A stretch of 64,000 nt of DNA from a virus, in IMG/VR virus record IMGVR_UViG_3300042564_003728. One strand, 5' to 3'. The notes below the pieces were generated by a model that made no database searches, was not told the DNA's origin, and saw only the letters and a list, made by a program, of their open reading frames with translations. Shown here piece after piece: positions 7,914-59,941 of this stretch (position 1 is its first letter; every line of letters starts with the position of its first letter). The translations under genes were made by a program, and so were the position numbers.

Positions 7914-7915
7914 TA

Positions 7916-9199: not shown

Positions 9200-9231
9200 A
9201 CTGTCTCTCAAATTTAAAAAGGCTATCAGCT

Positions 9232-9243: not shown

Positions 9244-9248
9244 GATTT

Positions 9249-9689
9249 ATGGCTTATCAAGGAAAGTTTCGACCAAAGGATATAAAGAAATATCTCGGGG
9301 ACTCGAACAATATCGTATATCGTAGTCGATGGGAACTTAAGTTCATGATGTACTTAGATTCTCATCCGAATGTCGTGCAGTGGGGGAGTGAAGAGTTAGT
9401 GATTCCTTATCGCTCTCCTCTCGACAATCGTGTACATCGATACTTTCCAGACTTCATTGTGAAGAAAAAATCACCAGAAGGAAAGATCGATACGATTGTC
9501 GTCGAAATAAAACCTCATGCGCAGACACGGCCTCCGGTGGTGATAAATAAGCCTAATAAGCGTTACATTAATGAAGTCATGACATGGGGTGTCAATGAAG
9601 CCAAATGGAGAGCTGCAGCAGTATACTGCAATGATCGCGGTTGGAAGTTCGACATACTTACAGAAAAAGAACTAGGAATTAAGTTTTAA
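9249..9689 (+). CDS. head completion protein gp4-like (tentative)
   Basis: 146 aa from the first ATG after the late promoter; the size and position next to baseplate genes fit T4 gp4. The upstream 121 codons of the ORF-track entry (8886-) overlap the divergent promoter and the antisense of the neighbouring gene. No SD sequence, so the start is uncertain. Confidence 0.4.
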   Translation: MAYQGKFRPKDIKKYLGDSNNIVYRSRWELKFMMYLDSHPNVVQWGSEELVIPYRSPLDNRVHRYFPDFIVKKKSPEGKIDTIVVEIKPHAQTRPPVVINKPNKRYINEVMTWGVNEAKWRAAAVYCNDRGWKFDILTEKELGIKF

Positions 9690-11589: not shown

Positions 11590-11612
11590 TTTATAATTTA
11601 GGAGAATATATA

Positions 11613-12323: not shown

Positions 12324-12352
12324 GTCACAACTCGCTTCAAAACTACTATAGT

Positions 12353-12496
12353 ATGATCTTTGCTTTGGCTCAGCATCACAAATATTCGATAACTGAGATC
12401 GAAAACTTAATACCTTATGAAAGAGATCTCTACGTTGATTTATTAATGGCTCATCTTGAAGAACAGAGACAAGAAATAGAGAGTAGAAGAAAGTAA
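12353..12496 (+). CDS. small hypothetical protein (possible chaperone for the downstream tape measure)
   Basis: 60-codon ORF 12314-12496 whose stop abuts the ATG of the 748-aa protein; an internal Met (MIFALAQHH...) is the likelier start. Confidence 0.2.
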   Translation: MIFALAQHHKYSITEIENLIPYERDLYVDLLMAHLEEQRQEIESRRK

Positions 12497-19499: not shown

Positions 19500-19970
19500 G
19501 GTGGCATCCGAATGATGCCGCTTTCTAGCCATCTAAGACTTGAAGTTTTGCAAGAGTCAATGGAGGATTCTAACCTCCGTCGTGATATTTTATTTATACT
19601 ACCACCAGCGGTTTTTCTGGTGACTCGTAGCACCAGAGATTCAACTGGTAGCAAGTGGCCCGTTCTGTTCCAAGGTGGAGCCATACCCGTGTAGATCATG
19701 CCGCTAGGCGGATATCTGCAAAGCTATCGTTATCGTTAGCATTTATGTTTAGTGGCACTTTGCCAGGCAATCAGTCTCGAACCGCCCTATTACACGAAAA
19801 TCGAATTCCAAGGTCACCCCCATCATCTACTATGCAAACACGCTTCGGCTTCCTGGCATGTTCGGGATACGATTATAACCGTATCCGGATTAATGCATAG
19901 TAGATGGTGGAGGTGCGGGGAGTCGAACCCCGGTCTTTCCGCCTTTATTGTTGATTGTCAACAACTGATA
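19500..19970 (-). ncRNA. ssrA: permuted (two-piece type) tmRNA gene. Acceptor piece is about 19970-19905, intervening hairpin 19904-19822, coding piece 19821 to about 19500.
   Basis: The minus strand reads ...GGCGGAAAGAC-CGGGG-UUCGACU-CCCCG-CACCUCC-A-CCA (T-arm plus acceptor 3' strand, G3:U70-compatible). An 83-nt spacer is closed by the 11-bp helix UCUACUAUGCA/UGCAUAGUAGA. Then comes GGGGGUGACCUUGGAAUUCGAUUUUCG (tmRNA 5' end, which pairs 7/7 with CACCUCC). The tag ORF GCU AAC GAU AAC GAU AGC UUU GCA GAU AUC CGC CUA GCG GCA UGA encodes ANDNDSFADIRLAA, 81 nt from the 5' G. The 3' boundary of the coding piece is uncertain. Confidence 0.6.
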
Positions 19971-19995
19971 TACTATATATACAATGTTTTTCTTT

Positions 19996-20010
19996 AATTG
20001 TACATGCTTA
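19996..20010 (-). promoter_or_regulatory. promoter-like motif upstream of tmRNA (TAAGCATGTACAATT, then a 17-nt spacer, then ATATAT)
   Basis: A member of the recurrent AAACATGTACAA motif family. The TGTACA hexamer, a 17-nt spacer and a TATATA -10-like element (19980-19974) precede the predicted tmRNA precursor start. Confidence 0.4.
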
Positions 20011-27609: not shown

Positions 27610-27627
27610 TTTGTACATGTTTATTTT
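27610..27627 (-). promoter_or_regulatory. promoter-like motif copy
   Basis: Minus strand AAAATAAACATGTACAAATTATCAAAACTGTAG. Confidence 0.3.
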
Positions 27628-28382
27628 CATAGGTCGATTTTATAATTAAAACTTGGACCACCCTTTGGCGTGTACTGCTCTGCGTTTGGCTCCCAACCAG
27701 GAGTTCCAACGACCGGTTCCCACTTTTTGTCGATATGTTCCTTCTTGACATATGACCACTTACGAGAAGTTTCCATTGCCGTTTCCATACCATACTCGAG
27801 CAATTGATTGTGCACAGCATCGTGTTCGTACATCTCTACGTCATCGAAGACGAAGACTGCGCCAGGATCTGATCGTTCAAGGAAAAACGCAATCTCGGTA
27901 TCAAGCGCTTCGAGCGTATGAGGACCATCGAAGTGAACTACGCTGTACTTATTGACAAGACTCTTATGCTCTGCATAGACAGGAACACCGTCTGCATAAC
28001 GATTGAAGAACTCTGTGTCTTCGAGGTTGAACATGTAGAAATTCACATTCTTCTGACGACAATACAGATACATGTTGATCATGCACACGTCGCGCATCTC
28101 ATTCGTATAGTCACAGCGACCTTCTTTGAAGATCTCGTCACGATAATATTCGATGTTGCCATACGGATCAATACCAAAGACTGGCTTCTCAGGAGTCTGA
28201 CCGCTTTCTACGAGACCGTCGATGATACGTTGTAGACCACCACCGAGACGGACACCGATCTCGACTGCCGCACCTTCTACACCTTTTGATCGAATGGCTG
28301 CGTCAGTGAGTACTTCATAGTTTCCACTGTCTGTGCCGAATTGTGCTTGGATCTGATGGATCGATACTGGTTGTTGTGACAT
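27627..28382 (-). CDS. class I SAM-dependent methyltransferase
   Basis: Motif I VEIGVRLGGG; first gene of the sugar-modification operon. Confidence 0.45.
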   Translation of the reverse strand: MSQQPVSIHQIQAQFGTDSGNYEVLTDAAIRSKGVEGAAVEIGVRLGGGLQRIIDGLVESGQTPEKPVFGIDPYGNIEYYRDEIFKEGRCDYTNEMRDVCMINMYLYCRQKNVNFYMFNLEDTEFFNRYADGVPVYAEHKSLVNKYSVVHFDGPHTLEALDTEIAFFLERSDPGAVFVFDDVEMYEHDAVHNQLLEYGMETAMETSRKWSYVKKEHIDKKWEPVVGTPGWEPNAEQYTPKGGPSFNYKIDL

Positions 28383-28981
28383 TATGTAGTTACCTTACCT
28401 CTGGTTCTGATATATTTAGCAATCATATGCATGATCGCCTGATGGACGTCTTCTGCTGCTTCGTATTCTTGAATATCAACGTGCAAAGAAATATCTGCGA
28501 GTTGAGCACACTTATTATCTGGTGAAAATCCTGTCAGAGCAATAGTCTTTATTTTCAATGACTTAGCAGTCTCAATTGCCTTGACAACATTTGGAGAATT
28601 ACCACTCGAAGAAATGGCTACGAGTACATCGCCTTCTTGCCCGAGTGCATCGAGCTGGAACGAGTAAACATCATCATAAGAGATGTCATTCGCCACGGCT
28701 GTCATGAGTGGAATATTTGCTGCCAAAGAAATAACTCTTGGTCGCAGTCCGCCTTTCTTACATCCTTTGGTATAGTCGCATGCCCAATGCTGAGCGATGG
28801 AAGCAGAAGCACCGTTTCCAATTGTATAGATGTTGTTACGATGATTCGAAATGCTTGTCAACCAAATGAGTTCGGCTGCCTTTTTAAATTCTTCATGATC
28901 GATACTTGCAAAGCCGATATTAATCAAGCCCATATGATCGAATATAATGTCAGTCTCGATAGACAACTCTTGCTCCTTCAT
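28382..28981 (-). CDS. gmhA: phosphoheptose isomerase GmhA (SIS domain)
   Basis: TIGNGASASIAQHWACDY and VAISSSGNSPNV are SIS/GmhA signatures; 199 aa. Confidence 0.7.
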   Translation of the reverse strand: MKEQELSIETDIIFDHMGLINIGFASIDHEEFKKAAELIWLTSISNHRNNIYTIGNGASASIAQHWACDYTKGCKKGGLRPRVISLAANIPLMTAVANDISYDDVYSFQLDALGQEGDVLVAISSSGNSPNVVKAIETAKSLKIKTIALTGFSPDNKCAQLADISLHVDIQEYEAAEDVHQAIMHMIAKYIRTRGKVTT

Positions 28982-29891
28982 GTGCGATGCCTACATCGAG
29001 GCACGTTCTGTCTGAAAATTCTTGGCGGATCAAGTTTTTCTGATCTGTGATTGCTAGCATGTATCCGCCGCCTCCTGCTCCGAGCAGTTTAGATCCGAAT
29101 GCTTCTGCTGATTGGCATCGATCGTACATACTATCTATCTCTTCTGAAGAGATGCCTTCAGTCATCTGTTTCTTTAATATCCATGCAGCATTCAACAATC
29201 CACCATAGTCAAATGGATTTACAGCTTGAGTGCTTTGCATATCTGCCATATGAGCAAGCTCACGAATTACAAATGTCTTGGCTTCGAAGTTAATCTTATC
29301 AAGAATCTTTGCTGCATGATGCTCTACGTTTGTAGGAATCAAGATTATGTAATTCTCGATTCCCATTGTATCTAAACGCTTTACAGTGATATTACCGCTG
29401 TTCGAATATTGAATATAGTTCATACCGCCGAAGGCAGATGCAAACTGATCTTGCATGCCAATCTTCCAACCGCATAGATCGATCTCGATGTGGCAAGCAG
29501 TCTTTGCGATGAGATAAGGGTTTACGTATTCGTAACCAAGATATGCTGATAGCGCTTTAATCAAGGCACAAGTAAAAGCAGACGATCCACCGAGACCGTT
29601 GCCGATCGTAGGGATGTCTGCGAATGATGTGATCTCGATGTTGGATTTGATACCGAAGAATTTCAAAGCGTTCTTGACAATATCGTTCTGAAGATCCTCA
29701 ACGTTCTCTACACACTCTTGTTTCGAATAAGAAACTTTGATGTGGTCGTGAGGAGTATGCATGACTGCTACATAGACATACTTGTCGATGGCAGTTGAGA
29801 TGGTTGCTCCACCCCATTGCGCAAAGTGGGCGGGGATATCACTACCCCCGCCGAAAAAACTAACTCTGAGTGGTGCTTTGGCCAATATCAC
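28950..29891 (-). CDS. GHMP sugar kinase, D-glycero-D-manno-heptose-7-phosphate kinase (HddA)-like
   Basis: PLRVSFFGGGSDIP and NGLGGSSAF are GHMP kinase motifs; the adjacency to GmhA implies a heptose pathway. Confidence 0.55.
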   Translation of the reverse strand: MILAKAPLRVSFFGGGSDIPAHFAQWGGATISTAIDKYVYVAVMHTPHDHIKVSYSKQECVENVEDLQNDIVKNALKFFGIKSNIEITSFADIPTIGNGLGGSSAFTCALIKALSAYLGYEYVNPYLIAKTACHIEIDLCGWKIGMQDQFASAFGGMNYIQYSNSGNITVKRLDTMGIENYIILIPTNVEHHAAKILDKINFEAKTFVIRELAHMADMQSTQAVNPFDYGGLLNAAWILKKQMTEGISSEEIDSMYDRCQSAEAFGSKLLGAGGGGYMLAITDQKNLIRQEFSDRTCLDVGIAHEGARVVYRD

Positions 29892-30864
29892 GGTGTTGTT
29901 CCTTTAACGAAGCGATGAGTCCCTTCCACTTGGGAATTACAGAATCCCAACCGAAGCGAGTATCTGCGTAGGCTTTGACAAATGACATCATGTTAGTAAT
30001 GTCGTTGTTCTGTACGTTCTCGATGGCATACATCAGAGTGTGTGCAAAGATGTTAGCATGCAGATTTGGATTCTCATGGTCGCCGTCATACTGTACGGTC
30101 AACCCACCCGACGTGTCAGCCAAAGCAGAGAAGTTAGGATGAACCGCCAAACAACCAGCCGACATAGCTTCAATAAGTGACCTGCACGAAGTTTCCGGCC
30201 AGATGCAAGGATATGCAAAGATGTGGGCTTTTTGATATGCGGCACGGACTGTCTCCTGATCTGCCCAACCATGATAGTTGATTTGTGGGTGCTCTTTCAT
30301 CCGATCGAAGATAGGTTTGTACGCTTCGTCGCGACTCTCCCAACCTGGACCATAAATGCCGAACGAAGAGTATACGTCTAGCTCGATGTTAGGATATTTC
30401 TCGGCGAGAGCGCAAAAGACAGGAACCAGAATCTCCAATCCACGATGAGGCGTGGACGTATAAATGAGACGAATCTTGTCCTTTGGTTTGTCAACGAGTG
30501 GAATAGGCTCGATGCCTGTTTCGATAACTGTTGAATGATTGCTATATGGAACTCCAAGATAATCACGATACTGTTGATACTGCCAGTTAGAACTGAAGAC
30601 CAACTTTTGAAAGCGAGCTCGAGAAGCTGGATCTTGAAGGTGTGAAGCTTCCGGATCACCGGCGAGATCATGTAAATGATAGATCTTAATTCGGTCAGGA
30701 TCGAGGTCGCGGACGCGAGCAGTGATAATTTGGACACCATCGAGTTCATCACTTGAAAGTCGGTGGAAAAGATTTCGAGTGGTAAGTTCTGTTCCACCAT
30801 TCGAGTCCTTATTCAGTTCGTTCAGTTCAATCTTATCTTGATTATTCATTATTTTTGTATCCAT
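29860..30864 (-). CDS. GT-B fold glycosyltransferase (GT4-like)
   Basis: C-terminal EAMSAGCLAV motif of retaining GT-B enzymes; 334 aa. Confidence 0.5.
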   Translation of the reverse strand: MDTKIMNNQDKIELNELNKDSNGGTELTTRNLFHRLSSDELDGVQIITARVRDLDPDRIKIYHLHDLAGDPEASHLQDPASRARFQKLVFSSNWQYQQYRDYLGVPYSNHSTVIETGIEPIPLVDKPKDKIRLIYTSTPHRGLEILVPVFCALAEKYPNIELDVYSSFGIYGPGWESRDEAYKPIFDRMKEHPQINYHGWADQETVRAAYQKAHIFAYPCIWPETSCRSLIEAMSAGCLAVHPNFSALADTSGGLTVQYDGDHENPNLHANIFAHTLMYAIENVQNNDITNMMSFVKAYADTRFGWDSVIPKWKGLIASLKEQHRDIGQSTTQS

Positions 30865-49560: not shown

Positions 49561-49568
49561 TATTTATA
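49561..49568 (-). promoter_or_regulatory. T4-type late promoter TATAAATA upstream of the Lys-rich protein operon
   Basis: Plus strand tatttata; downstream on the minus strand, RBS AAGGGAAACTCTG then ATG at 49499. Confidence 0.4.
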
Positions 49569-49587: not shown

Positions 49588-50199
49588 TCAACTAATCCAG
49601 TTTTTAAATCTGACAATGAATGATTCGTTCACACCCATGCCTTTGCGGACATCGTGATACAACTCGTCTTTATGTGCTTTGCTCATACCAGATGGAGCCA
49701 TCTTATGGAATGATTCTTTATCTCCAGCGGTGACGTGCTTACGCATAGCAGTACCAGAAGCAGATTCAATTCCACCTCCACCTTCTTTGCGTTCGCCACC
49801 GACAGACTTTACTTTGATGCTCTTGAAGTTGTAATGGCCATGTTTATTCTCTGTGCCATTATACTGATGCAAAAGCTTATGAAATTCGTGTACACGATCA
49901 GAACCGACATGCATAGTCACATGTGTGTAACCAGCCTTATGCAGCTTTGACATCTGATGGAGCAGAGTCGGATGTTCCTTCGTCATCGCCTCGACGTGCG
50001 AACCTTTGACAGCACGAGAAAGATGCTTCACCTTCTGCTCAGGTGTTAAAGGATTCTTCTTGGCATCATGAGATCCTGTTGTCAGGATCTTATGATCGGC
50101 TCCTTCTTTCTTGGCCGCATCCATCACATGCTTGACGACCATTTCGTGGCCTGCATGCACAGGATTGAATCGTCCTTGTGTGATATGAATGGATTTCAT
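49588..50199 (-). CDS. HIGH-motif nucleotidyltransferase, NMN adenylyltransferase-like
   Basis: GRFNPVHAGH matches the archaeal-type NMNAT/NadM GRFQPFHKGH; the second motif ASGTAMRKHV matches ISGTxIR; the remainder is His/Lys-rich. Confidence 0.5.
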   Translation of the reverse strand: MKSIHITQGRFNPVHAGHEMVVKHVMDAAKKEGADHKILTTGSHDAKKNPLTPEQKVKHLSRAVKGSHVEAMTKEHPTLLHQMSKLHKAGYTHVTMHVGSDRVHEFHKLLHQYNGTENKHGHYNFKSIKVKSVGGERKEGGGGIESASGTAMRKHVTAGDKESFHKMAPSGMSKAHKDELYHDVRKGMGVNESFIVRFKNWIS

Positions 50200-51365: not shown

Positions 51366-51967
51366 CGTACTGTTTTTACCGATCCATCAGGATTTACAAA
51401 GAAGGCTTCGAACGTAATATCAGGAAACTCTTTCTTCAATGAAAGAAATGCCTGAAGATTGCTAGGAGCATCATCAAACAACCGAAGCTTTACGTAGTTC
51501 TTAGTATTTATATACTTTCGAAAGATGATCTTCTTGGCTTCAGCCGAAGAGTCGATCTTCAAGTTACCAGCTCGTTCGACATGGATATTATCGATAGGTA
51601 GACCATGATCTCTGAACGTCTGAAGGAAGATATCCTTGTTATCGAAGTCAGCTCGCGCTGTACAGATAATCACTCGACTATGAGGATTCTTTTTCGAGTT
51701 AGCAAAGATAGCTTTTGTTTTTGCAACCATACGAGTGATTGGCTTGGATGACCTACGAAATACCTCGGCGTTTGCAAACTCTCCGAAGTCGTAGGTTTCA
51801 CCCTTCTTACGTTTGTAAGTGTTGAACTCTTGGTTGTCTAGCATTCTGACAAGGTTGCCGTCTTTTACAACGGCAACCTTTGCATACGTGTGAAACAATG
51901 TCTCATCAATATCGAATATCGTGAGGGTACCAGTACCAACAAACTCTTTAAATCTTTTCTTTATCAT
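51362..51967 (-). CDS. HAD-family phosphatase (polynucleotide 3'-phosphatase-like)
   Basis: IFDIDETLF DxDxT motif, ICTAR and FDD blocks comparable with the T4 Pnk phosphatase domain; a promoter-like motif lies 30 nt upstream. Confidence 0.45.
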   Translation of the reverse strand: MIKKRFKEFVGTGTLTIFDIDETLFHTYAKVAVVKDGNLVRMLDNQEFNTYKRKKGETYDFGEFANAEVFRRSSKPITRMVAKTKAIFANSKKNPHSRVIICTARADFDNKDIFLQTFRDHGLPIDNIHVERAGNLKIDSSAEAKKIIFRKYINTKNYVKLRLFDDAPSNLQAFLSLKKEFPDITFEAFFVNPDGSVKTVR

Positions 51968-51993
51968 AGTTTACTCTACAATAGTTTCGATAA

Positions 51994-52010
51994 AATGTAC
52001 ATGTTTATTT
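51994..52010 (-). promoter_or_regulatory. promoter-like motif copy
   Basis: Minus strand AAAATAAACATGTACATTTTATCGAAACTATTG-TAGAGT. Confidence 0.3.
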
Positions 52011-52727
52011 TTATAATTTTACGTTTGGTTTGAGCACACCGCTCGTCAAACGATCGAGCATGATATCGCTCTTCTTAACCTTCTTGATGGCCATAACCTT
52101 ACCAATATCTCGAGTAGAGTTTTTGATAAAGATGATCTGGTGGTTCTTGAAGTAGTTGTCATATGCACGCTGTGCAAAGTCTTCTTCGATACGCTTCAGC
52201 TCGTTAGGATATTTCCTACGAATGGCATCGAGAGCTGACTTGTTGACACCTTCACCACTAGCACCAACTTTCTTTTTCAGATCTAATAGATCCTTTACGA
52301 TATCACTCAGATTGAATGTACCGCCGAGTTTAAAGTTTGTAGCATAGCCATTGGCAGTAACATCGACAGCCTTCACTTCGAATTCTCCGTTACTCGCTAT
52401 TACGTCAACGCCGGCGGACGACCCACCACCGAGATGAGCCGAGTTGACTAGAAAGTAAAGAGTGACTTCACCAGGACCTACGCCCTTGAGATTGTAGTTG
52501 TGCATCTTCGACAGCATTACCGGATCTTCGCTGCGAAGCTTGTCAATCAGTCTATTGATCTTATTCATATCGATCGAATCAATCGTATCCTTTAGATCAA
52601 ACTTGGGGAAGAAATGCATATTAAAGATATGCTGAATTTCTTTTTTGAAACGTGTGTCTTTAAAATCTGATGAAGACAGATTGAATGACGTAACGTGCAA
52701 AGCCCGTTTGATAAAGTTTTTATCCAT
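52011..52727 (-). CDS. hypothetical protein with PD-(D/E)xK-like motif
   Basis: GVDVIASNGEFEVKAV fits D-x(n)-E-x-K; 238 aa. Confidence 0.3.
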   Translation of the reverse strand: MDKNFIKRALHVTSFNLSSSDFKDTRFKKEIQHIFNMHFFPKFDLKDTIDSIDMNKINRLIDKLRSEDPVMLSKMHNYNLKGVGPGEVTLYFLVNSAHLGGGSSAGVDVIASNGEFEVKAVDVTANGYATNFKLGGTFNLSDIVKDLLDLKKKVGASGEGVNKSALDAIRRKYPNELKRIEEDFAQRAYDNYFKNHQIIFIKNSTRDIGKVMAIKKVKKSDIMLDRLTSGVLKPNVKL

Positions 52728-52809
52728 AATTTATTCCTTATTCCTTTGTTTATTTATCAACAAGCAAAATTATCTTTGCTCGTATTGTCACGCTACAACG
52801 AAATGCAAT

Positions 52810-52826
52810 AATTGTACATGCTAAAA
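52810..52826 (-). promoter_or_regulatory. promoter-like motif variant (TTTAGCATGTACAATT)
   Basis: GCTTA-type variant of the motif, as at 19996 and 57219. Confidence 0.25.
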
Positions 52827-52885
52827 ACAAAAAAAATCGCTCCGAGTATCTCTACTGGAGCGATTTGTTAGAAATATTTATGGTG

Positions 52886-53449
52886 TTAGGCTGCGACAGC
52901 AAACCATTCTGGAATTGGACGTTTGGTCCATGCCATCTTAAATCGCTCTTGCTTCGTCTGATAGAACTTACGATAAGATCCTACGATATCATTGTAGTCG
53001 ATACACTCAGGATTAGCCTTCATCGCCAACGGCTGAGGAGTCTTGTAACCGACTGGAATATTACGAGGCAATTGCTTCAAAGCTTCGCGAAGCAATGTAT
53101 CAGTGCTATGAACCTTGCCATAGCGATACGTGTACTCGTCGCAGAGAGCAGCGAAGTGTATCCAGTGCCAAGTGTAGTTATTATTACTTTGTGCAGTCCA
53201 AATCGTGCAAGGATGATGCATATGCACTGCACGATAGAATGTATCTTCACGTTCGTCAGGCAGAGTCCATGCCTTCGACATCGTCTTACCAGACTTTGAA
53301 GGAATACGGCACTGCTCGCCGTCAAGCATACGATGCACTGTAGAAAGCATCTGAGCACTCTCGACGATCATCTTCACGACATGCTTGTCACACTGTAATT
53401 GTGCTGCTTTGACAGGATCACTGTCAAGAATGAATAAATTCACGGCCAC
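52886..53449 (-). CDS. hypothetical protein (conserved-looking N-terminus MAVNLFILDSDPVKAAQLQCDKHVVKM)
   Basis: 187 aa, Trp/His-rich; no assignable motif. Confidence 0.3.
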   Translation of the reverse strand: MAVNLFILDSDPVKAAQLQCDKHVVKMIVESAQMLSTVHRMLDGEQCRIPSKSGKTMSKAWTLPDEREDTFYRAVHMHHPCTIWTAQSNNNYTWHWIHFAALCDEYTYRYGKVHSTDTLLREALKQLPRNIPVGYKTPQPLAMKANPECIDYNDIVGSYRKFYQTKQERFKMAWTKRPIPEWFAVAA

Positions 53450-53555
53450 ATTTCCTTATCGTTTAACATTTCATCGCGTTCCTCTGGAGTAATCTTATTG
53501 GTAAGGATACCATACACTGTAACTCCAATAATGAACACTATAAAAACGAAAAGAT

Positions 53556-53972
53556 TCATATTCCAGCTTTCTTTACAAGATCTTTATATCCACGCCACGA
53601 TGGATGGATATCATCAGGTTGAACATACGATGTAGCAATGATACGATCTCCGTAACTTACAGCGATGCTTTTCACTACGGCATTCACCTTAGGTTTACAA
53701 AAACCTTTGTTACAAGGAGGCATAATCCATACTACATTTCCTACCTTAATACGAGTTCTAATTATTGTCAACTCTTTTTTTGTATTCACGCCGGAATGAT
53801 CGTTTGTTCCAAGACTAATCACGATTGTCTTGGCTTCAAGCGGAGTCTTACCCCACTTCTTATTCCACTGCCATGTGTTATATCCGCCCTTCGAATATGA
53901 TACACATTCTTTCGGAGCAAACATTTTAGTACCAACGGCGATCGAGTCGCCCATAATTAAACATTCTAACAT
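53556..53972 (-). CDS. SGNH/GDSL-family hydrolase
   Basis: Block I IMGDSIAVG, block III SLGTNDH, block V DDIHPS. Confidence 0.55.
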   Translation of the reverse strand: MLECLIMGDSIAVGTKMFAPKECVSYSKGGYNTWQWNKKWGKTPLEAKTIVISLGTNDHSGVNTKKELTIIRTRIKVGNVVWIMPPCNKGFCKPKVNAVVKSIAVSYGDRIIATSYVQPDDIHPSWRGYKDLVKKAGI

Positions 53973-54235
53973 TATACTTGTATCCCTGTTACTTGTTTCA
54001 GATATTGTGTAGCAACCTGTGCACTCGTTTCAGTAGCACCGACGATCACAGTGTCAGAGATAACGACGTTGTTATCAGGAGCTGACATCATCCATGGCAT
54101 CATCGCAAATCCTTGTGGTCCCATACCAACTGTACGAGGCTTAATGAGCTCGGTGACTCCGTCTTCTTGCTTGACACGAGAGATCAACTCTTCGCCCGAC
54201 ATGAGCTTAATTGTATATACTTTATTCTGTTCCAT
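53972..54235 (-). CDS. hypothetical small protein
   Basis: 87 aa. Confidence 0.2.
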   Translation of the reverse strand: MEQNKVYTIKLMSGEELISRVKQEDGVTELIKPRTVGMGPQGFAMMPWMMSAPDNNVVISDTVIVGATETSAQVATQYLKQVTGIQV

Positions 54236-54608
54236 TATTTTCTACCTCATAACGAATATTTGTGCCTTTCCAGACTTTGATACCAAGCCCATCGTATTCC
54301 CAGTCACGTAGATCAGGATCAAGTTCTTTCATATCTGGTTTCGGAGTATCATAGACCACTTCGTGCACATACTTAAACTTTTGTTCGTCTGACCATTCAC
54401 GAAGATAATCATTGTCCTCGTCAAATACACGAAGATACTCTGCATCATCGATTACGCGAGCAGAAGTGACTAACTCGTCGATATGCATCTGAGAAAACTC
54501 TTCCGCCTCATTCATCGTGACTGTGTCTTTTGCATGTTCAGCACTCTCACAATCGACAACATATCGAATCCGATGCATCGAGATTGTTTCTACAAGATAC
54601 TTAGGCAT
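54222..54608 (-). CDS. hypothetical acidic protein
   Basis: 128 aa. Confidence 0.2.
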   Translation of the reverse strand: MPKYLVETISMHRIRYVVDCESAEHAKDTVTMNEAEEFSQMHIDELVTSARVIDDAEYLRVFDEDNDYLREWSDEQKFKYVHEVVYDTPKPDMKELDPDLRDWEYDGLGIKVWKGTNIRYEVENNGTE

Positions 54609-54906
54609 CGTCTTTCAATCCCATTTCTATCAACTGATCAGGAGTTGAGTACCATTTTAGCACAATCTCAAGCGCGTCGATATGTTTTTGGATCTCTATA
54701 TCATCAGCTTCCTGATCATCCCATACAAAGATGTGATGATTTGCTCCAAGATCTCGACGCAAAGTATCCCATGTATCACGAAGTTGGTCAACAACAATCT
54801 TATCAGCCATTTCATAAGTTAAATCAATCGTATACTTACTCATTTCACTTTTCCTTTTCAACAATAATTGAACAACATTTACCACCAAACCCAAACGAGT
54901 TGACAA
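54601..54906 (-). CDS. hypothetical protein
   Basis: 101-codon ORF; the likely start is the internal MSKYTIDL. Confidence 0.2.
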   Translation of the reverse strand: MSTRLGLVVNVVQLLLKRKSEMSKYTIDLTYEMADKIVVDQLRDTWDTLRRDLGANHHIFVWDDQEADDIEIQKHIDALEIVLKWYSTPDQLIEMGLKDDA

Positions 54907-55954
54907 GAACTTTCTTGACGTCAGTCTCGATGTTCTCCATCACCACATCCATATCAGTGTCTTTGCAACCAGCGGTATGAGGAATCACACCGTTCTGAAT
55001 AGACAGTACACTGTAAATCGTTTCAAGTACACCTGCTGCAGCGAAAGTATGTCCAATTTTTCCTTTATTGGAATATATCGGCGCATCGGTAAACTCGCGA
55101 ACCACATTGTATTCTGAAATATCTCCAAGCGGTGTACTCGTGCCATGCGAGTTGATGCTATCAACACCTTCAAGATTCAGTTTTTCAAGGCATGCTCTTG
55201 CTCCTGTGCCAGAAGGAGAAGTTGGATCGAGTGCATCAGAAGCGTTTGCGACTCCAGTAATACGAGCATAAATCTTCGAACCCATCTCTTCAGCTTTCTT
55301 ACGAGACTGAAGAATGATGCAACCTGCGCCTTCTCCCATAATAAAACCATCACGATTTTTATCGAACGGCATTGACTTCGTACCGATAGCTCGCATTGCA
55401 GAGAAAAAGCCTAAGTCAAGATCATTTACTCCTGCATCAGAACCTCCTACAATTACATAGTCATATTCATCAAGAAAACGCATGGCATAATCGATGCTTA
55501 CGAGACCGGTAGCACAAGCAGAATACACACACGTGTTGATACCGCGATAGCCATACTTAATAGAGATATTACTACACAAATAGTCGATAGTAATCTTAAG
55601 CCCTTGCTTCGGCTTCAGCGGCTTTCCAGATGCCCGCGCGCGGGCCTTCGAAGTATTTCCACCAGTCAAAGTCGAAAAAACTACACCAACATTAGAAGAG
55701 TGCGGAAGTCCTGCCATATGAAGAGCTTGTTCGACAGCATGCATGCCATAGTGCACAGTACGATTAGTAAAATTTTCGTCTATTTCTATTTCAGGATACA
55801 TTCCATATTTAACTTTATTGCCGTATCCTTCGTGGATGTGTGGATCAACAAGTTTATGGAAGTCTCGATCATTAAGCATATTCTCCCAACAATCGATGGG
55901 ATTATCGCCTAAGGCGTCGATCATTCCAAAGCCGACGATACATGCTTCCTTCAT
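54845..55954 (-). CDS. beta-ketoacyl-ACP synthase (KAS I/II, FabF/FabB-like)
   Basis: Catalytic triad context: YSACATGLVSID (Cys), NSHGTSTPLGD (His), KGKIGHTFAAAG (His); C-terminal NSFGFGG; 369 aa. Confidence 0.8.
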   Translation of the reverse strand: MKEACIVGFGMIDALGDNPIDCWENMLNDRDFHKLVDPHIHEGYGNKVKYGMYPEIEIDENFTNRTVHYGMHAVEQALHMAGLPHSSNVGVVFSTLTGGNTSKARARASGKPLKPKQGLKITIDYLCSNISIKYGYRGINTCVYSACATGLVSIDYAMRFLDEYDYVIVGGSDAGVNDLDLGFFSAMRAIGTKSMPFDKNRDGFIMGEGAGCIILQSRKKAEEMGSKIYARITGVANASDALDPTSPSGTGARACLEKLNLEGVDSINSHGTSTPLGDISEYNVVREFTDAPIYSNKGKIGHTFAAAGVLETIYSVLSIQNGVIPHTAGCKDTDMDVVMENIETDVKKVLVNSFGFGGKCCSIIVEKEK

Positions 55955-56346
55955 TCTACAACTTTCTTATAACGATTAATTGTTCCATCGGCTTCTTCGA
56001 CCATAATCTCATCCATACGAGGATTATGAGCTAGAATTCTTTGTTCATGATCTGCAATGATCTTACCGGCTTCACGAAGAGTACGCATCACAGCATTAGC
56101 AATTCCAAACTTATTGCGGCCGGTATTTCGCGCTTCTTCAACCGCATCAGCACTGTCGCGATACAACTCATCGGACAACGACCAAGATAAGTCGACAGCA
56201 TTAGCAAAATCTCCTACGCGCCGAAGATATTCTTGTCCTCCGTCGACAGAAATAGCTCCACATGTGCAAGTTACAAAGTCATGACGATGCTTTGAGACGA
56301 TAAGGTCTCCACATGACAAGCAATTTACTGCATTTTGAACAATCAT
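55951..56346 (-). CDS. hypothetical Cys-cluster protein
   Basis: CLSCGD...CTCG zinc-binding-like N-terminus; 131 aa. Confidence 0.3.
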   Translation of the reverse strand: MIVQNAVNCLSCGDLIVSKHRHDFVTCTCGAISVDGGQEYLRRVGDFANAVDLSWSLSDELYRDSADAVEEARNTGRNKFGIANAVMRTLREAGKIIADHEQRILAHNPRMDEIMVEEADGTINRYKKVVE

Positions 56347-56576
56347 TCTGCTATCACCTTTTCGTGCACTTGTGTAATGTGCTTACACTTATTATAGAAA
56401 TTAAAACCAGGACAGTCACACACCCAACCTTGATCGAGCATCGTGACGTGATACTGTTTGCCTTTACAGTTTATATATGGCCATGTCAGACCGACCAAAT
56501 GGTGGTCGTGAAAATTGATGCCAGCCATTGCAAGCGGTGTACGAAAGGCGGAATAAGTTGGCGTATGGTCAATCAT
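56343..56576 (-). CDS. SWIM zinc-finger mini-protein
   Basis: CDCPGFNFYNKCKH matches the SWIM pattern CxCx(n)CxH. Confidence 0.45.
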   Translation of the reverse strand: MIDHTPTYSAFRTPLAMAGINFHDHHLVGLTWPYINCKGKQYHVTMLDQGWVCDCPGFNFYNKCKHITQVHEKVIAE

Positions 56577-56756
56577 AGGTTCACCTTACTACAAAAAACT
56601 AATTTTGTAAACCCCCTAAAGCGAGGAGAATTAAAATAACAAAAAGAAAACCATAGAGGGCAAATCGGAAAAAAATCTTGGCGACCTTAAGTCCGATCCA
56701 AAGAAAGAGGCCTAAGATCGCCAAGAACGGCAACGATGAGAGGAGGAACACGATGC

Positions 56757-57176
56757 TCAACCGCGTCTCTTACCAGTTGCCGGATCGGCCGCTTCAGACT
56801 TGGAAAGGACAACAAGTCCGCCTTTGTTATAGGCTTGGCCGATGATATAATTGCCGCTGACGGCAAGCTTTTCTTTCTCGTAAGAGGAATTCTTTGCGTA
56901 GTGTACACCGATCTCGTTCTGAGATGGGTACTTTTTACGATGATCTGATACGTTGTAATCAGGCATCGGTGTGCCACGAAGCTTAGGCTTATAGTTGCCA
57001 GCACGGTACTGCTGATATTCTTCGAACGTCTTTGGCTTAACACCAATACGCTTGCAAAACTTACAGTCTTCGAGCCAAGCCAAACCAATTTTGGTATACT
57101 TGGACGTCGTCATTTTAGACTTACGCTTGCCATGATGAGTGGTAGTGTAAGCAGGACCAAGAAGATGCATTGTCAT
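56757..57176 (-). CDS. hypothetical basic protein
   Basis: 139 aa; a promoter-like motif lies 45 nt upstream (57219-57234). Confidence 0.3.
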   Translation of the reverse strand: MTMHLLGPAYTTTHHGKRKSKMTTSKYTKIGLAWLEDCKFCKRIGVKPKTFEEYQQYRAGNYKPKLRGTPMPDYNVSDHRKKYPSQNEIGVHYAKNSSYEKEKLAVSGNYIIGQAYNKGGLVVLSKSEAADPATGKRRG

Positions 57177-57218
57177 AATATAATTTCCTCCTGATTCTGG
57201 TATACACTACCACCGATT

Positions 57219-57234
57219 AATTGTACATGCTTAC
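57219..57234 (-). promoter_or_regulatory. promoter-like motif variant (GTAAGCATGTACAATT)
   Basis: GCTTA-type variant. Confidence 0.25.
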
Positions 57235-58028
57235 TTTACGTTGACGATACCCTTAAAGTCGTAAGGAACGATAATGGTAGAAACCTTACCTTCCTTCACG
57301 GCTTCGGCGATCGTCACGAGAGCAGTTGCTTCCATGTACTTTGTTGCACCAGCATTGGCGTTCAGAGCGGCAATACGTTCTGCTTCCAACTTTGCGGTGC
57401 GAACCTCTACCTGCTTCTGCTTCTCGGCGTTCTGTGCCTGAACCAACTGGTTGGCTGAGGCTACGATGTTCGCAGCAGGCTTTACCTGACGAACAAGAAC
57501 CTGAGAGATTGAAATTGCACCGTCAAGCTTCTCAGAAGCAAGCTGCGTAACGATTTCCTGGCGAACAAGCTGTTCGATCTCTGCACGGTTATCAGCCATT
57601 TTCAAGGACTCGTACTTGCGTGCAACCTTATAGGCAGCATTACGACCGAGCTGACGAATGTAGTTGTACATTAGAAGGGTGTCACCTTCTTCGGTATCAG
57701 CGTGGAAGCCACGGTTCTTTTCGATGTAGAGTTCTGCAACAGAACCAGGATTGATCGAGTAGATGACAGCCATATCGAAGTCGGCAACTGTCGAGTTATC
57801 AGAAGCGAGTGGAGTCAAGTCAGAGACATCAACCTGAACATCCTTTGTAGGGAATGTCATGACATCACCGAACATTGTCTGATTGATAGAACCAGGCATC
57901 AACTCAGTTGTTTCAATGGTCTTGTCGAACGAGCGACGAACACCAACTTCACCAGTTTCAATACGAGTACATGCAGCAGTCGTGGCCATCAGACCAGCGA
58001 GAACGGCAATCTTTGCAATACGATTCAT
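57231..58028 (-). CDS. SPFH/band-7 (prohibitin-like) lipoprotein
   Basis: Signal plus lipobox LMATTAAC; SPFH core through residue 200; Ala/Gln-rich coiled-coil tail. Confidence 0.65.
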   Translation of the reverse strand: MNRIAKIAVLAGLMATTAACTRIETGEVGVRRSFDKTIETTELMPGSINQTMFGDVMTFPTKDVQVDVSDLTPLASDNSTVADFDMAVIYSINPGSVAELYIEKNRGFHADTEEGDTLLMYNYIRQLGRNAAYKVARKYESLKMADNRAEIEQLVRQEIVTQLASEKLDGAISISQVLVRQVKPAANIVASANQLVQAQNAEKQKQVEVRTAKLEAERIAALNANAGATKYMEATALVTIAEAVKEGKVSTIIVPYDFKGIVNVK

Positions 58029-58042
58029 AATTTACTTTTCCT

Positions 58043-58219
58043 TTAGAACAAAATAACAATAGACGCAACAAATAACATTACTAGAACGGTGACTCCAAAA
58101 GAATAACCGGCCACGGCCAACATTTTTATCTTTTCTTTTCCGGTCAGCCGACGGAAAATATCAATGCTTGTAAAAAAGATGACAAACAATGACAAGAAAG
58201 CAATAATCATTTTACTCAT
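58043..58219 (-). CDS. small 2-TM membrane protein (58 aa), missed by the ORF track
   Basis: MSKMIIAFLSLFVIFFTSIDIFRRLTGKEKIKMLAVAGYSFGVTVLVMLFVASIVILF; ATG overlaps the phosphoesterase stop (TAATG) and the gene ends 15 nt before the SPFH ATG. Confidence 0.4.
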   Translation of the reverse strand: MSKMIIAFLSLFVIFFTSIDIFRRLTGKEKIKMLAVAGYSFGVTVLVMLFVASIVILF

Positions 58220-58860
58220 TAATTAGGTCCACTTCCATTTCCCCATGCTTTTACAGGACCTTTATATCCTGTATCTTTCCAACGTTGTTGGATTCTTTCT
58301 TCTACCTCATCGAAGTGAAGAGGAGTGAAGTCGGTTTGCTCTACGCATACGCAGAGATATCGAGGATCTGGGAAGTCAGCATATATGATTTCGTTTCTAT
58401 CAGCATTAACTCCCCATGGCATTTTGATCTCATTTGCATGTAGATGACCGTGTACGTTGACACGGAACCTTTCAGACACGCAGTCAGGATGTAGCGGGAT
58501 ATGGCTCAGAATGAACTTATCGACAAACACACGAACACCGTGAATCTGCTCAAAGCCAACTTCACGATAGTCTTCGTCCTTGAAGATGTCGTGGTTACCG
58601 CGCACAAGGATCTTACGGCCATTCATACGCTTTACCAATTCAAGATACTTCTTGTTGATTACCACGTCGCCAAGAAAGTAGACAGTGTCTTGCTCTTTCA
58701 CTTTAGCATTGTGCCGCTCGATCATGGTCTCGTTCATCTCTTCAGTCGAAGTGAACGGCCGCAGCGGACTGCCGTCAGATAGCGTGAACTTTTCCCACGA
58801 GTTCGTATGACCAAGATGATGGTCAGAGATAACGAATCTGTTTACAAACTTAGTCATCAT
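58219..58860 (-). CDS. calcineurin-like metallophosphoesterase
   Basis: Motifs ISDHHLGH, GDVV, GNHD, GHLH; 213 aa. Confidence 0.65.
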   Translation of the reverse strand: MMTKFVNRFVISDHHLGHTNSWEKFTLSDGSPLRPFTSTEEMNETMIERHNAKVKEQDTVYFLGDVVINKKYLELVKRMNGRKILVRGNHDIFKDEDYREVGFEQIHGVRVFVDKFILSHIPLHPDCVSERFRVNVHGHLHANEIKMPWGVNADRNEIIYADFPDPRYLCVCVEQTDFTPLHFDEVEERIQQRWKDTGYKGPVKAWGNGSGPN

Positions 58861-59110
58861 CCATTCTTTCGAGGTATATTCGAGTTGCTTCTACGCTGAG
58901 AGACAATACAGCGGTTGCATTGATACGACAAGCGATATTCACGACAATCCATTTGGCAATGTATGCAGTGATACGATCTTTGCGAGATAACGTGTTATTC
59001 ACATTTCCACCATACGTTCGTATGCAGCGCGATCGGCTTGCTCATCGAGCCAAGCTTCGTAACCTTCCCAGAATTCTTGTTCTTCAGCAGACATCATCAT
59101 ATCCTTCTTC

Positions 59111-59160
59111 ATTATAGATCCACCTTACCAAAAATTGTATTAATTGTACATGTTTATTTT
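59111..59160 (-). repeat. early promoter/RBS cassette, diverged copy D
   Basis: The minus strand reads AAAATAAACATGTACAATTAATACAATTTTTGGTAAGGTGGATCTATAATGAAGAAGGAT-ATGATGATG, driving a 33-aa ORF (MMMSAEEQEFWEGYEAWLDEQADRAAYERMVEM). Confidence 0.5.
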
Positions 59161-59405
59161 TAGTTGTAATTATCAATCACAGGAGATAGGCGAGACATAA
59201 GTCTAACGAATTTTAGACGAGGTTTTTTGTTAAGGACGATATCGTCGACGGTCGCGGCGACGAAGTAGTTTTTGTAAAGAGCGATTGAATATTCGAGTGT
59301 CGGGTTTTGATTGATAAAATCGACGAGAAGTTGAATGGTGGGGAATTTAGGCGAAGAGGTGTCGAGGTTGTTGTTAAGACGATCGAAATATTGAATGGAG
59401 TACAT
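59160..59405 (-). CDS. hypothetical protein
   Basis: Start MYSIQYF placed 17 nt after the TATAAT of cassette copy C (RBS AGAAGGAAAAA). Confidence 0.3.
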   Translation of the reverse strand: MYSIQYFDRLNNNLDTSSPKFPTIQLLVDFINQNPTLEYSIALYKNYFVAATVDDIVLNKKPRLKFVRLMSRLSPVIDNYN

Positions 59406-59420
59406 GTGTTTTTTTCCTTC

Positions 59421-59470
59421 TTGATTATAGGTCCACCTTACCAAAGTTTTGATAAAATGTACATGTTTAT
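59421..59470 (-). repeat. early promoter/RBS cassette copy C (PeSL-like)
   Basis: tgattataggtccaccttaccaaagttttgataaaatgtacatgtttatt, identical over about 48 nt to copy B; a hairpin follows at 59491-59512. Confidence 0.6.
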
Positions 59471-59490
59471 TTCGAAAAAAGGACAAAAAA

Positions 59491-59512
59491 ATGGGCGACC
59501 CGAAAGCCGCCC
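59491..59512. terminator. hairpin terminator tgggcg-ACCCGAAAGC-cgccca
   Basis: GC stem with an ACC-GAAAGC loop related to the 16940 and 22935 hairpins; A7 run on the plus-strand 5' side. Confidence 0.45.
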
Positions 59513-59632
59513 ATCATGCGTGTAGCAGGAGGAACCCCACCTGTGACCCTGCCTATTCCAGTCGTCAATTAAGACACTTGCCTCTTACACAGTTAAAACT
59601 GTATATCCACGCACCACATAGTGTACATCTAT

Positions 59633-59941
59633 TTATACAAGTTCTACAGTCAATTCTAAAGTTTTTTCGCGTTCAGCTAAAAAAAATGCTGGCGTAGATC
59701 CATCAAACCCACCGCCAAAGTTTAGGTGACGAACCATCTCCTTGGCTTTGGACATACGCATACCCTTGACTACAATCTGATCTGTCTTGGTCTCAAGGAT
59801 ATCACCGCCTATTTCGCCAAACCCGCCACCAACGTTGACGATCTTTCCAGTATTTACGATCTTGTAGTTAACCATCAATCTTCTCCCATTTAAAACCAAA
59901 ACAAAGTTCTTGCATCTTGCGATGAAACCAATTAGGCTCAT
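59633..59941 (-). CDS. hypothetical protein, Gly-rich small beta-type
   Basis: KIVNTGKIVNVGGGFGEIGGDILETKTDQIVVKG; the likely start is the internal MVNYK. Confidence 0.25.
   Translation of the reverse strand: MSLIGFIARCKNFVLVLNGRRLMVNYKIVNTGKIVNVGGGFGEIGGDILETKTDQIVVKGMRMSKAKEMVRHLNFGGGFDGSTPAFFLAEREKTLELTVELV

Follow-up and report, generated by a model that had tools for sequence, protein, structure and literature searches.

The condensing step of type II fatty-acid synthesis sets both flux and chain length, and the condensing enzyme of the bacterial pathway is a drug target. The stretch of viral DNA analyzed here (64 kb in total; hereafter, the window) includes an ORF that had been taken, in an initial annotation made from the sequence, for a full-length β-ketoacyl-ACP synthase (KAS) of the FabF/FabB type with no carrier-protein partner. 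This raises the question of whether a phage brings a genuine condensing enzyme into its host and, if so, on which carrier protein and to what end that enzyme would act.

Results

Identity and fold of the KAS

The KAS gene (54845..55954, minus strand) encodes a compact FabF-like protein of 369 aa from an ATG start, in which both KAS domains of Pfam (PF00109 and PF02801) were recognized. The N-terminal ketoacyl-synt domain was matched at 1.2e-28 over profile positions 5-252 of 252, with 100.8 bits against a cut-off of 20.8, and the Ketoacyl-synt_C domain at 5.6e-19 over positions 1-118 of 119, with 68.7 bits against a cut-off of 20.8; that is, both lie above the Pfam gathering score with near-complete coverage, which is the domain test for elongating, decarboxylating KAS I/II enzymes. 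A profile search of the PDB returned FabF at 5e-77. The AF2 model of the protein (pLDDT 91.3, pTM 0.94) was compared by Foldseek with solved structures, giving a TM-score of 0.92 to the FabF of P. aeruginosa and B. subtilis, and the 50 top PDB matches were FabF, FabB, or mitochondrial KAS throughout (TM 0.87-0.93). Taken together, the protein is, as judged by sequence and predicted fold, a real condensing enzyme of the KAS I/II type. The concern that its best homologues might be non-condensing proteins of the thiolase fold was not borne out, the closest solved structures being FabF and FabB. The description as full length holds in that neither domain is truncated, but about eight small deletions in loops leave the protein ~40 residues short of the length of FabF. 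It also scored under every NCBIfam FabF/FabB cut-off, with 225.1 bits against 493.75 for TIGR03150 and 226.2 against 387 for NF005589 (both FabF) and 157.9 against 630 for NF005935 (FabB), which rules it out as an equivalog of either enzyme, and no PHROGs family matched it.

The residues of the KAS were numbered against E. coli FabF (C163/H303/H340/K335/F400) and compared among 33 family members. The triad is made up of C147, H270, and H302, and the further residues are K297, T272/T274, D278, E281, and the gating F356. The equivalents of FabF C163, H303, H340, K335, T305, T307, D311, E314, F400, and G402 were kept in 33/33 members, confirming the Cys-His-His triad as intact and invariant, and the equivalent of D265 (D240 in the window's KAS) was kept in 32/33. 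A read error at the active-site Cys, which had been raised as a concern, was excluded by the presence of 100%-identical copies on five IMG/VR contigs from different samples. In the gating loop, F356 and G358 (33/33 each) are followed by K-C, not T-N; the window's KAS carries the family motif NSFGFGG-K359-C360, and most members of the phage family have K/R-C at the positions of FabF T403-N404, beside the gating loop. Owing to this replacement, the preference for carrier or substrate may differ from that of FabF. Furthermore, T/S takes the place of FabF I108, a pocket residue, in the phage family, and the basic ACP-docking surface of FabF is partly kept, with R127/K128 present as K/R and R206 as R188 in the window; the docking patch K65/R68/K69 is not conserved. 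The basic patch left in the window's KAS is made up of K111, K113, K115, and R188.

Lineage and phage setting

Relatives of the KAS are encoded on 160 IMG/VR contigs, and the lineage, compact at about 360-405 aa and with FGFGG-K-C where FabF has FGFGG-T-N, also occurs in many metagenome clusters. A search of 1.84 billion representatives, for which the matches listed were mostly multi-KS polyketide synthases, was used for counting stand-alone clusters and gave ~25 of them at 50% identity among those matches. In a scan of species genomes of bacteria and archaea (185,579 in total), the best KAS matches among those listed were 28-34% identical over the full length. A bootstrap tree (fast distance method, small outgroup set) grouped the phage family together in 69/100 replicates, lending moderate support to its monophyly as far as such sequence comparison goes, and FabB was further than FabF from the KAS in sequence, profile, and tree. 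With respect to GenBank phages, the 52-60 kb part of the window had no megablast match, and every KAS match found by tblastn had an identity of ~30% to the KAS of the window. Those GenBank records that were inspected turned out to be unverified contigs or genes of host chromosomes, for example, fabB beside mnmC, and these matches served just as FabF/FabB references. Judged from these comparisons, the KAS is a separate lineage, found solely on phage-like DNA among the matches listed, and its gene is a long-resident phage gene and no recent host capture.

The source is a T4-like freshwater phage, and the window carries phage genes for baseplate, tail tube, gp32, RNase H, NrdAB, UvsX, a gp41-like helicase, and DNA polymerase. 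Its proteins are also encoded on a contig of 65,088 bases and on many contigs from lake metagenomes. The KAS gene is flanked on both sides by phage genes on the same strand, and its GC content equals that of the window (0.42). Its dN/dS against clade relatives was 0.05-0.14, and it is under strong purifying selection. Distant family members also adjoin T4-like genes, such as those for gp59, gp32, UvsX, and DNA polymerase. The KAS gene, hence, lies inside a phage genome and is conserved and selected across phage lineages, the features by which we class it as a likely auxiliary metabolic gene (AMG). The surroundings had been called hyperplastic, which is fair, as close relatives differ by insertions between shared flanking genes. 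With 10 copies in the window and 2.7 expected, the late promoter motif of the T4 type (TATAAATA) is enriched, but it is missing from the coding strand between 51513 and 59629; a scan of sigma-70-type promoters and terminators gave counts no higher than chance.

Neighboring genes

On the coding strand, the KAS gene is preceded directly by the gene for a DUF7695 protein (131 aa; 55951..56346, minus strand) and, further upstream, by that for a SWIM-like mini-protein (77 aa; 56343..56576, minus strand), and the SWIM-like/DUF7695 and DUF7695/KAS junctions are each a stop-start overlap of 4 bases (ATGA). The Cys-cluster and SWIM proteins that had been noted as following the KAS are, therefore, both present, but upstream of it on the minus strand. 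The DUF7695 ORF matched PF24749 above the gathering score (77.7 bits against 25; 5.5e-22). The protein has an N-terminal zinc ribbon, C9xxC12...C27xC29, of which the Cys residues are invariant in 23 homologues, and a conserved C-terminal half with an invariant Ser within an 'xSW' motif. The CxC-x9-CxH signature of the SWIM-like protein (C54xC56-x9-C66xH68) was kept across 33 loci, with identities as low as 32%, but the match to Pfam SWIM (PF04434) was borderline, with an E value of 0.0018 and 18.2 bits, below the gathering cut-off of 19.6. The assignment as a SWIM zinc finger is, thus, backed by the conserved signature and not by the family score. DUF7695 also turns up in phages that have no KAS gene; in relatives, it is set apart from the KAS by one to three unrelated genes, and the association is lost in clades whose KAS is less than about 70% identical. 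The gene neighborhoods of the relatives gave no evidence for a functional link of the zinc-finger neighbors to the KAS, and we read the DUF7695 and SWIM-like genes as probably ordinary small phage genes that simply lie adjacent to it.

Downstream of the KAS is the gene for an acidic protein (80 aa; 54601..54843, minus strand), with a likely ATG 1 base past the KAS stop codon; its match to SecA_DEAD in Pfam was weak and subthreshold, and neither a Ser-containing ACP motif nor similarity to ACP was found in it. Three genes downstream of the KAS lies the gene for a mini SGNH/GDSL hydrolase (138 aa; 53556..53972, minus strand), with GDS, GxND, and DxxH blocks and 28 bits to Pfam Lipase_GDSL_2 against a cut-off of 32.9. 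This hydrolase has 871 homologues, of which the 120 listed are 72-94% identical and lie on contigs of up to 319 kb, and its family looks more widespread than the KAS. A role as a KAS-specific thioesterase partner is unsupported for a family so large, highly conserved, and seemingly wider spread.

Carrier protein and lipid-related genes

Searches with three ACPs (phmmer and hmmsearch) in all six frames of the window revealed no ACP; as a positive control, the search found an ACP at 3e-14 in the locus of a distant relative (L078). In addition, none of the 144 window ORFs with a length of 62-125 aa, both strands included, matched PP-binding (PF00550) in a Pfam scan. The earlier remark that no recognizable ACP lies nearby could, thus, be extended to the whole 64-kb window. 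Among 88 related phage loci with flanks of up to 10 kb, L078 was the one with an ACP, located 4 kb upstream of the KAS, and a 308-aa gene directly after its KAS was read by eye from motifs as an acyl-ACP desaturase; the ACP and the desaturase-like gene together would tie the KAS family to ACP-bound substrates. The DUF7695 protein was considered as a cryptic carrier and rejected, having no PP-binding similarity and no D-S-L-type motif, and its C-terminal half was predicted to form two helices and three strands and no four-helix bundle, in a poor AF2 model of low confidence (pLDDT 56). Because the window contains no ACP, the use of host acyl- and malonyl-ACP is the simplest reading, and the KAS would most likely use the host carrier protein, although the window is part of a genome and an ACP could lie elsewhere.

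Regarding lipid-related neighbors, a membrane fatty-acid desaturase was located at most 10 kb from the KAS in 20/48 related loci below 60% identity, and the KAS beside desaturases fits a role in lipid remodeling; desaturases of phages are recognized as lipid AMGs (PMC5776448; PMC7300359). In the window's own clade, a desaturase or other lipid gene was found nearby in 0/34 loci, so that the lipid context is borrowed from distant relatives, and the co-location of lipid genes in AMG islands can be a coincidence. In other clades, the KAS directly adjoins oxygenases of the 2OG-Fe(II) or Asp/Arg-hydroxylase type, some in tandem arrays of 3-4 copies; no 2OG oxygenases were found in the window or its clade. 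The L078 locus contains APS-kinase-like, ACP, four 2OG-oxygenase-like, methyltransferase, KAS, and desaturase-like genes, their roles being assigned from sequence reading rather than from database matches.

Discussion

On balance, we favor the reading that the phage carries, as an AMG, an active stand-alone elongating enzyme of the KAS I/II type, for which the elongation of host acyl-ACP would be the most likely activity. The gene would be transcribed together with its same-strand neighbors, probably in early or middle infection, and the enzyme would form a dimer, in which Cys147 would receive the acyl chain from host acyl-ACP. Host malonyl-ACP would then be decarboxylated with the involvement of His270, His302, and Lys297, and condensation would yield a β-ketoacyl-ACP two carbons longer. 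The cycle would be completed by host FabG, FabZ, and FabI, so that the phage would supply the condensing step alone, and the KAS would sustain or shift the acyl-chain output during the shutdown of host gene expression. The use of host ACP, the timing, and any effect on the membrane are all three what we infer from the gene and its setting.

It is possible, though rather unlikely, that the KAS serves to make one specific lipid or metabolite and does not feed into bulk membrane lipid, with partners that vary by phage clade; candidates are hydroxylated or oxo fatty acids, an acyl chain of lipid A or lipoprotein, an octanoyl/lipoate precursor, or, through release by the SGNH hydrolase encoded nearby, a free acid. 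Such a product would be in line with the oxygenases directly beside the KAS in other clades, some of them in tandem, with the combination of ACP, oxygenase-like, methyltransferase, and desaturase-like genes in L078, with the change of I108 to T/S in the pocket and the altered neighbors of the gating loop, and with the conserved mini SGNH hydrolase three genes downstream in the window's clade. However, these partners vary across clades and are not conserved, the window and its clade are without oxygenases, the SGNH hydrolase is seemingly wider spread than the KAS, and T4-like phages crowd unrelated AMGs into shared variable regions. We regard it as improbable that the KAS is instead overproduced for host takeover, draining or tying up malonyl-ACP and the host partners of fatty-acid synthesis and blocking host lipid synthesis, by which acetyl-CoA, NADPH, and ATP would be freed for phage replication. 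Overproduction of FabF reportedly blocked fatty-acid synthesis in E. coli in the hands of Subrahmanyam and Cronan in 1998, and the phage gene would suit this role as a lone condensing enzyme, with partner genes absent in the window's clade, an intact decarboxylation apparatus, and a place among genes without a preceding late promoter. Nevertheless, the desaturases with which the KAS is repeatedly paired in other clades speak for the making of lipids, full turnover seems to matter, given that the acyl-pocket and gating residues are conserved, and sequence alone cannot tell an inhibitor from an enzyme.

Equally to be weighed is a carrier of the phage's own, outside the 64-kb window or too divergent to be recognized. 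The ACP that L078, a distant relative, has 4 kb upstream of its KAS, the partial divergence of the canonical ACP-docking patch, and the window being part of a probably larger genome would allow for it, but the window and 87/88 related phage loci (flanks up to 10 kb) are without an ACP and the adjacent DUF7695 protein was negative as a candidate, which leaves such a carrier quite doubtful. Host contamination, a chimeric assembly, or a host fabF captured recently and now decaying is an artefact common enough, in view of the unverified contigs or host genes among the GenBank phage KAS records inspected; it is hardly credible here, being refuted by the same-strand phage genes on both flanks, the identical KAS copies in five independent samples, a dN/dS of about 0.1, the KAS GC content equal to that of the phage, and the identity of 28-34% over the full length to the best bacterial genome matches among those listed.

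The stand-alone elongating KAS that we favor may be compared with known systems. It resembles bacterial FabF (E. coli; B. subtilis, 4LS5; P. aeruginosa, 4B7V) in the thiolase fold with both KAS domains, in the triad, Lys335, Thr305/Thr307, Asp311/Glu314, Asp265, and the GFGG gating loop with Phe400, and in superposition (TM-score of 0.91-0.93), whereas it differs in being 27-30% identical with about eight loop deletions, in having K/R-C for T403-N404 and T/S for I108, in the loss of K65/R68/K69, and in having no adjacent acpP/fabG/fabD. The fold and catalytic set are also shared with bacterial FabB (KAS I; TM 0.87-0.89). A 'fabF' was mentioned in one line, without analysis, in freshwater pelagimyophages of the group PMP-D (Zaragoza-Solas et al, 2020; PMC7029224), which are likewise T4-like aquatic phages with a KAS gene that stands alone, and their gene set of speH, fabF, stearoyl-CoA desaturase, and 2OG oxygenase matches three loci of the present family (L082, L083, and L088). 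The KAS of these loci is, however, just ~40% identical to that of the window, of which the clade has no desaturase, speH, or oxygenase beside the KAS, and the GC content of the window (42%) differs from the 30-35% range used for genome selection in that study (PMC7029224). The desaturases of cyanophages (vFAD; PMC5776448) and Arctic brine viruses (PMC7300359) are similar as phage AMGs acting on host acyl chains, but are another enzyme with another reaction. The vFAD paper reports on desaturase function (PMC5776448); in the literature searched, we found no functional report on a phage KAS comparable to the desaturase work and no test of any phage KAS. A predicted prophage fabF of Rhodobacteraceae was also annotated as a phage AMG, with fabG-acpP-fabF keeping the host operon order, acpP included (PMC8224337); in contrast, the window's KAS is alone and its lineage is absent among the bacterial scan matches listed.

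Therefore, a phage "fabF" is already known, in passing, in the literature searched, and together with a desaturase in pelagimyophages (PMC7029224). The modest advance of the present study is a family defined with its conserved and altered residues, in which an own ACP is usually absent. If this compact lineage is phage-only and widespread, many aquatic T4-like phages would intervene in host lipid synthesis, beyond desaturation, and a lipid-synthesis step would join the phage auxiliary functions that are important in lakes and oceans. The protein (369 aa) would also offer a naturally minimized KAS in which the structure-function relations of gating and ACP recognition could be studied. It is less to be expected, but conceivable, that the phage lineage differs in function from FabF, as a ketosynthase in its own right and not simply a small FabF, and has adapted to another carrier, substrate, or product; if so, primers or hydroxylated chains, for example, could be made with the 2OG oxygenases and desaturases adjacent in other clades, in a small phage-specific lipid pathway. 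The features on which this last reading rests are the age of the lineage and its occurrence, among the matches listed, on phage-like DNA alone, the trimmed loops, K/R-C in place of T-N, the change of I108 to T/S, and the diverged ACP-docking patch.

The KAS gene and its genomic setting

The window is a portion of a T4-like myophage, with structural genes (baseplate wedge and tail tube), replication and nucleotide genes (gp32, RNase H, NrdA/NrdB, ThyX, a UvsX-like recombinase, a gp41-like helicase and a DNA polymerase fragment) and an even GC content of ~0.42, the KAS region included. Genes for a 77-aa SWIM-like protein (56343-56576, ORF call), a 131-aa DUF7695 protein (55951-56346, ORF call and Pfam) and a 369-aa beta-ketoacyl-ACP synthase (KAS; 54845-55954, ORF call and Pfam) are co-directional on the minus strand, with a 4-base ATGA overlap at both junctions, and 1 base separates the KAS stop from the start of the next downstream gene. 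Nothing nearly identical to the 52-60 kb stretch turned up among GenBank phages.

As the initial annotation had observed, this is a genuine and complete KAS. The Pfam ketoacyl-synthase N- and C-terminal domains were matched at near full length (1.2e-28 and 5.6e-19), and the nearest solved structures were FabF at ~30% identity (5e-44 when the sequence was searched alone, 5e-77 when the family profile was used). The AlphaFold model, for which a 17-sequence family alignment was the input, was confident (mean pLDDT 91.3, pTM 0.94); its top 50 PDB matches were all FabF, FabB or mitochondrial KAS, with TM values of 0.91-0.93 to FabF of P. aeruginosa, B. subtilis and E. coli and 0.87-0.89 to FabB. 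The best homologues are condensing enzymes, which rules out non-condensing thiolase homologues. The protein is ~40 residues shorter than FabF, and the profile alignment resolved this deficit into about eight small loop deletions, with neither domain truncated. Residues of 33 family members were mapped on an E. coli FabF sequence whose accuracy is supported by its agreement with the published numbering C163/H303/H340/K335/F400. The equivalents of C163, H303, H340, K335, T305, T307, D311, E314, F400 and G402 are invariant (33/33), and that of D265 is retained in 32/33. Five independent samples yielded copies that are 100% identical and carry the active-site Cys, which cleared the concern that it might be a read error. 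The family differs from E. coli FabF in that T403 is replaced by K or R (32/33), N404 by C (27/33) and the pocket residue I108 by T or S (24/33). Conservation of the FabF ACP-docking patch K65/R68/K69 is lost in the 33 members; the basic character of the R127/K128 patch is retained, and the R206 equivalent is Arg in the window's KAS.

KAS as a member of a phage lineage

The KAS belongs to a phage lineage and is not a FabF equivalog. It scored below every curated NCBIfam model (225 bits for fabF, cut-off 494, and 158 bits for FabB, cut-off 630), and PHROGs contains no family for it. The closest 120 clusters in a 5.8-billion-protein collection extend from 99% down to ~41% identity and are nearly all 340-401 aa, with few fragments and many on 50-240 kb contigs; in IMG/VR, 160 viral contigs carry a relative. 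Relatives at 72%, 66% and ~47%, together with distant clusters at ~41-44%, were found in phage-like contexts throughout, with T4-like replication genes, gp59/gp32, giant tail-fibre-like genes and runs of small unannotated genes. In a scan of 185,579 bacterial and archaeal species, one genome apiece, for the family-specific pattern NSFGFGGK, full-length matches among those listed reached at best 28-34% identity, the ordinary FabF level, and partial matches among those listed reached ~40% over the C-terminal two-thirds. An exhaustive search of representatives placed ~25 stand-alone 50%-identity clusters ahead of the first canonical enzymes. Pairwise dN/dS against clade relatives was 0.05-0.14, and a library of predicted viral protein structures yielded only two further ketosynthase-like proteins, both from uncultured phages. 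The phylogeny suggested in the initial annotation, run by neighbour joining, separated the family from FabB as well as from the FabF proteins of E. coli, Listeria and Staphylococcus, although with a moderate bootstrap of 69/100 and a small outgroup set. The GenBank phage records matching KAS (hits H1-H28, e.g., NC_049343.1 28400-29620) were ~30% identical, and those inspected proved to be either unverified contigs or genes of the host; the match in Escherichia phage 500465-2 is a fabB adjoining mnmC, a host-chromosome arrangement.

Phage fabF as such is already known, and the present gene is a phage-borne, FabF-like auxiliary metabolic gene (AMG). What is new here is its placement in a lineage that is compact, old and, it appears, restricted to viruses, usually without an ACP and with a distinctive K-C pair following the gating loop. 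The lineage would be more notable if the altered residues reflect a different carrier, substrate or product.

Absence of an ACP and the neighbouring genes

The reported lack of a nearby ACP was borne out: neither phmmer with three ACPs nor a small ACP profile detected one in any frame of the window (best E-value ~2), and a Pfam scan gave no PP-binding match among all 144 window ORFs of 62-125 aa on both strands. The search was sensitive enough, because it detected at 3e-14 the ACP of L078, a viral contig of 39 kb with a KAS sharing 42% identity with that of the window. This was the single ACP found in 88 related phage loci (flanks up to 10 kb each), and the lineage is thus usually without an accompanying one. 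The distant KAS of L078 lies in a dense gene group at 5043-12786, where translations read by eye indicated APS-kinase-like, ACP, four 2OG-oxygenase-like, phytanoyl-CoA-dioxygenase-like and methyltransferase genes and, immediately after KAS, a protein of 308 aa carrying the di-iron motifs that mark soluble acyl-ACP desaturases; the cluster may be a phage-borne lipid-modification pathway.

The 34 loci of the window's clade, in which KAS identity is 82% or higher, have a gene order that runs from a metallophosphoesterase and an SPFH lipoprotein through two small genes to the SWIM-like, DUF7695 and KAS genes; two or three more small genes follow, and then a mini SGNH hydrolase and a DNA-binding protein of PHROG 624. 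The region is plastic, as had been noted: close relatives carry insertions between DUF7695 and KAS, either of an AAA ATPase or of one or two small genes. An AAA/STAND-like ATPase of ~360-380 aa occupies varying positions beside KAS in several phage clades (L035, L036, L041, L068 and L182), in some loci between DUF7695 and KAS, and behaves like a mobile insertion. The SPFH/Band-7 gene (57231-58028, minus strand), four genes upstream of KAS and conserved in the clade, encodes a lipoprotein-type signal with a terminal Cys (…TTAAC) and matches PHROG 200 "lipoprotein". The 138-aa mini SGNH/GDSL hydrolase (53556-53972, minus strand) has GDS, GxND and DxxH blocks and 871 homologues; identities span 72-94% for the 120 that were listed, and their contigs reach 319 kb.

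Among KAS clades below 60% identity, 20 of 48 loci have a membrane fatty-acid desaturase no more than 10 kb from KAS, oxygenases of the 2OG-Fe(II) or Asp/Arg-hydroxylase type adjoin KAS, at times in tandem arrays, and SpeH, radical SAM and QueC genes are also present; all of these are absent from the window and its 34-locus clade. Tandem arrays of three to four ~200-aa c43 paralogues, with His-rich motifs of cupin-like appearance and no Pfam match, lie directly upstream of KAS in five related loci (L066, L068, L082, L083 and L088, at about 7000-10000), in the last three together with a fatty-acid desaturase and SpeH. The gene set of these three matches that published for freshwater pelagimyophages, namely speH, fabF, stearoyl-CoA desaturase and 2OG oxygenase (Zaragoza-Solas et al., PMC7029224), so that members of the family have appeared in print before, though unanalysed.

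Of the two upstream zinc-finger neighbours, the DUF7695 protein has a firm Pfam match and an invariant CxxC...CxC motif; in the 77-aa protein, CxC-x9-CxH is preserved across 33 loci with identities as low as 32%, but its score lies slightly below the Pfam SWIM cut-off. No evidence was found for a functional tie of either protein to KAS; their adjacency is limited to one clade and broken by insertions. Phages of Erythrobacter, Acinetobacter and Geobacillus carry DUF7695 relatives, and none of their records was among the KAS matches in the GenBank phage collection. The C-terminal half of DUF7695 was considered as a hidden carrier protein and rejected; it has no PP-binding similarity, and a low-confidence model (pLDDT 56) gave two helices and three strands rather than a four-helix bundle.

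Possible function and expression

The best-supported reading is that KAS is probably an AMG encoding a stand-alone elongating enzyme that acts on host acyl-ACP and malonyl-ACP. Host reductases and dehydratase would finish each elongation cycle, and acyl-chain synthesis would be sustained or redirected during infection. The elongation of host acyl-ACP proposed initially agrees with a condensing KAS and a window without an ACP, whereas the lipid remodelling attached to it found no support within the window's own clade; the case for such remodelling comes from the distant relatives and from phage desaturases as a precedent (PMC5776448, PMC7300359). A specialised product made jointly with clade-specific partners, of the kind seen beside the more distant KAS genes, is unlikely. 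It is more doubtful still that KAS is a takeover device depleting malonyl-ACP, and reliance on a phage carrier encoded outside the window is equally doubtful. With identical copies from independent samples, an artefact is extremely improbable.

For the elongating AMG, the timing of expression was considered from the T4-type late promoter motif TATAAATA, which occurs in 10 copies in the window vs 2.7 expected from shuffles, e.g., at 3019-3026 (minus), 9232-9243 (both strands), 49561-49568 (minus) and 59630-59637 (minus), several of them just upstream of structural genes. Since this enriched motif is absent from the minus (KAS coding) strand at 51513-59629, early or middle expression of KAS is suggested. 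A strong terminator-like hairpin at 59490-59515 (minus; 11-bp stem with 6 GC pairs, then a T run) follows a TATAAATA motif at a distance of ~115 bases and shortly precedes the gene at 59160-59486.

Other features of the window

Permuted tmRNA is an unusual phage cargo. The window carries a two-piece tmRNA at 19605-20008 (minus strand), called by ARAGORN, which gave the tag peptide ANDNDSFADIRLAA, and by Rfam (tmRNA_permuted, 89 bits with a cut-off of 47; alpha_tmRNA, 54 bits with a cut-off of 50), which suggests an alphaproteobacterium as host. Methyltransferase, GHMP kinase, family-1 glycosyltransferase and cytidylyltransferase-like genes at 27627-30864 and 49588-50199 (minus strand) may form a sugar-nucleotide or DNA/surface-modification module.
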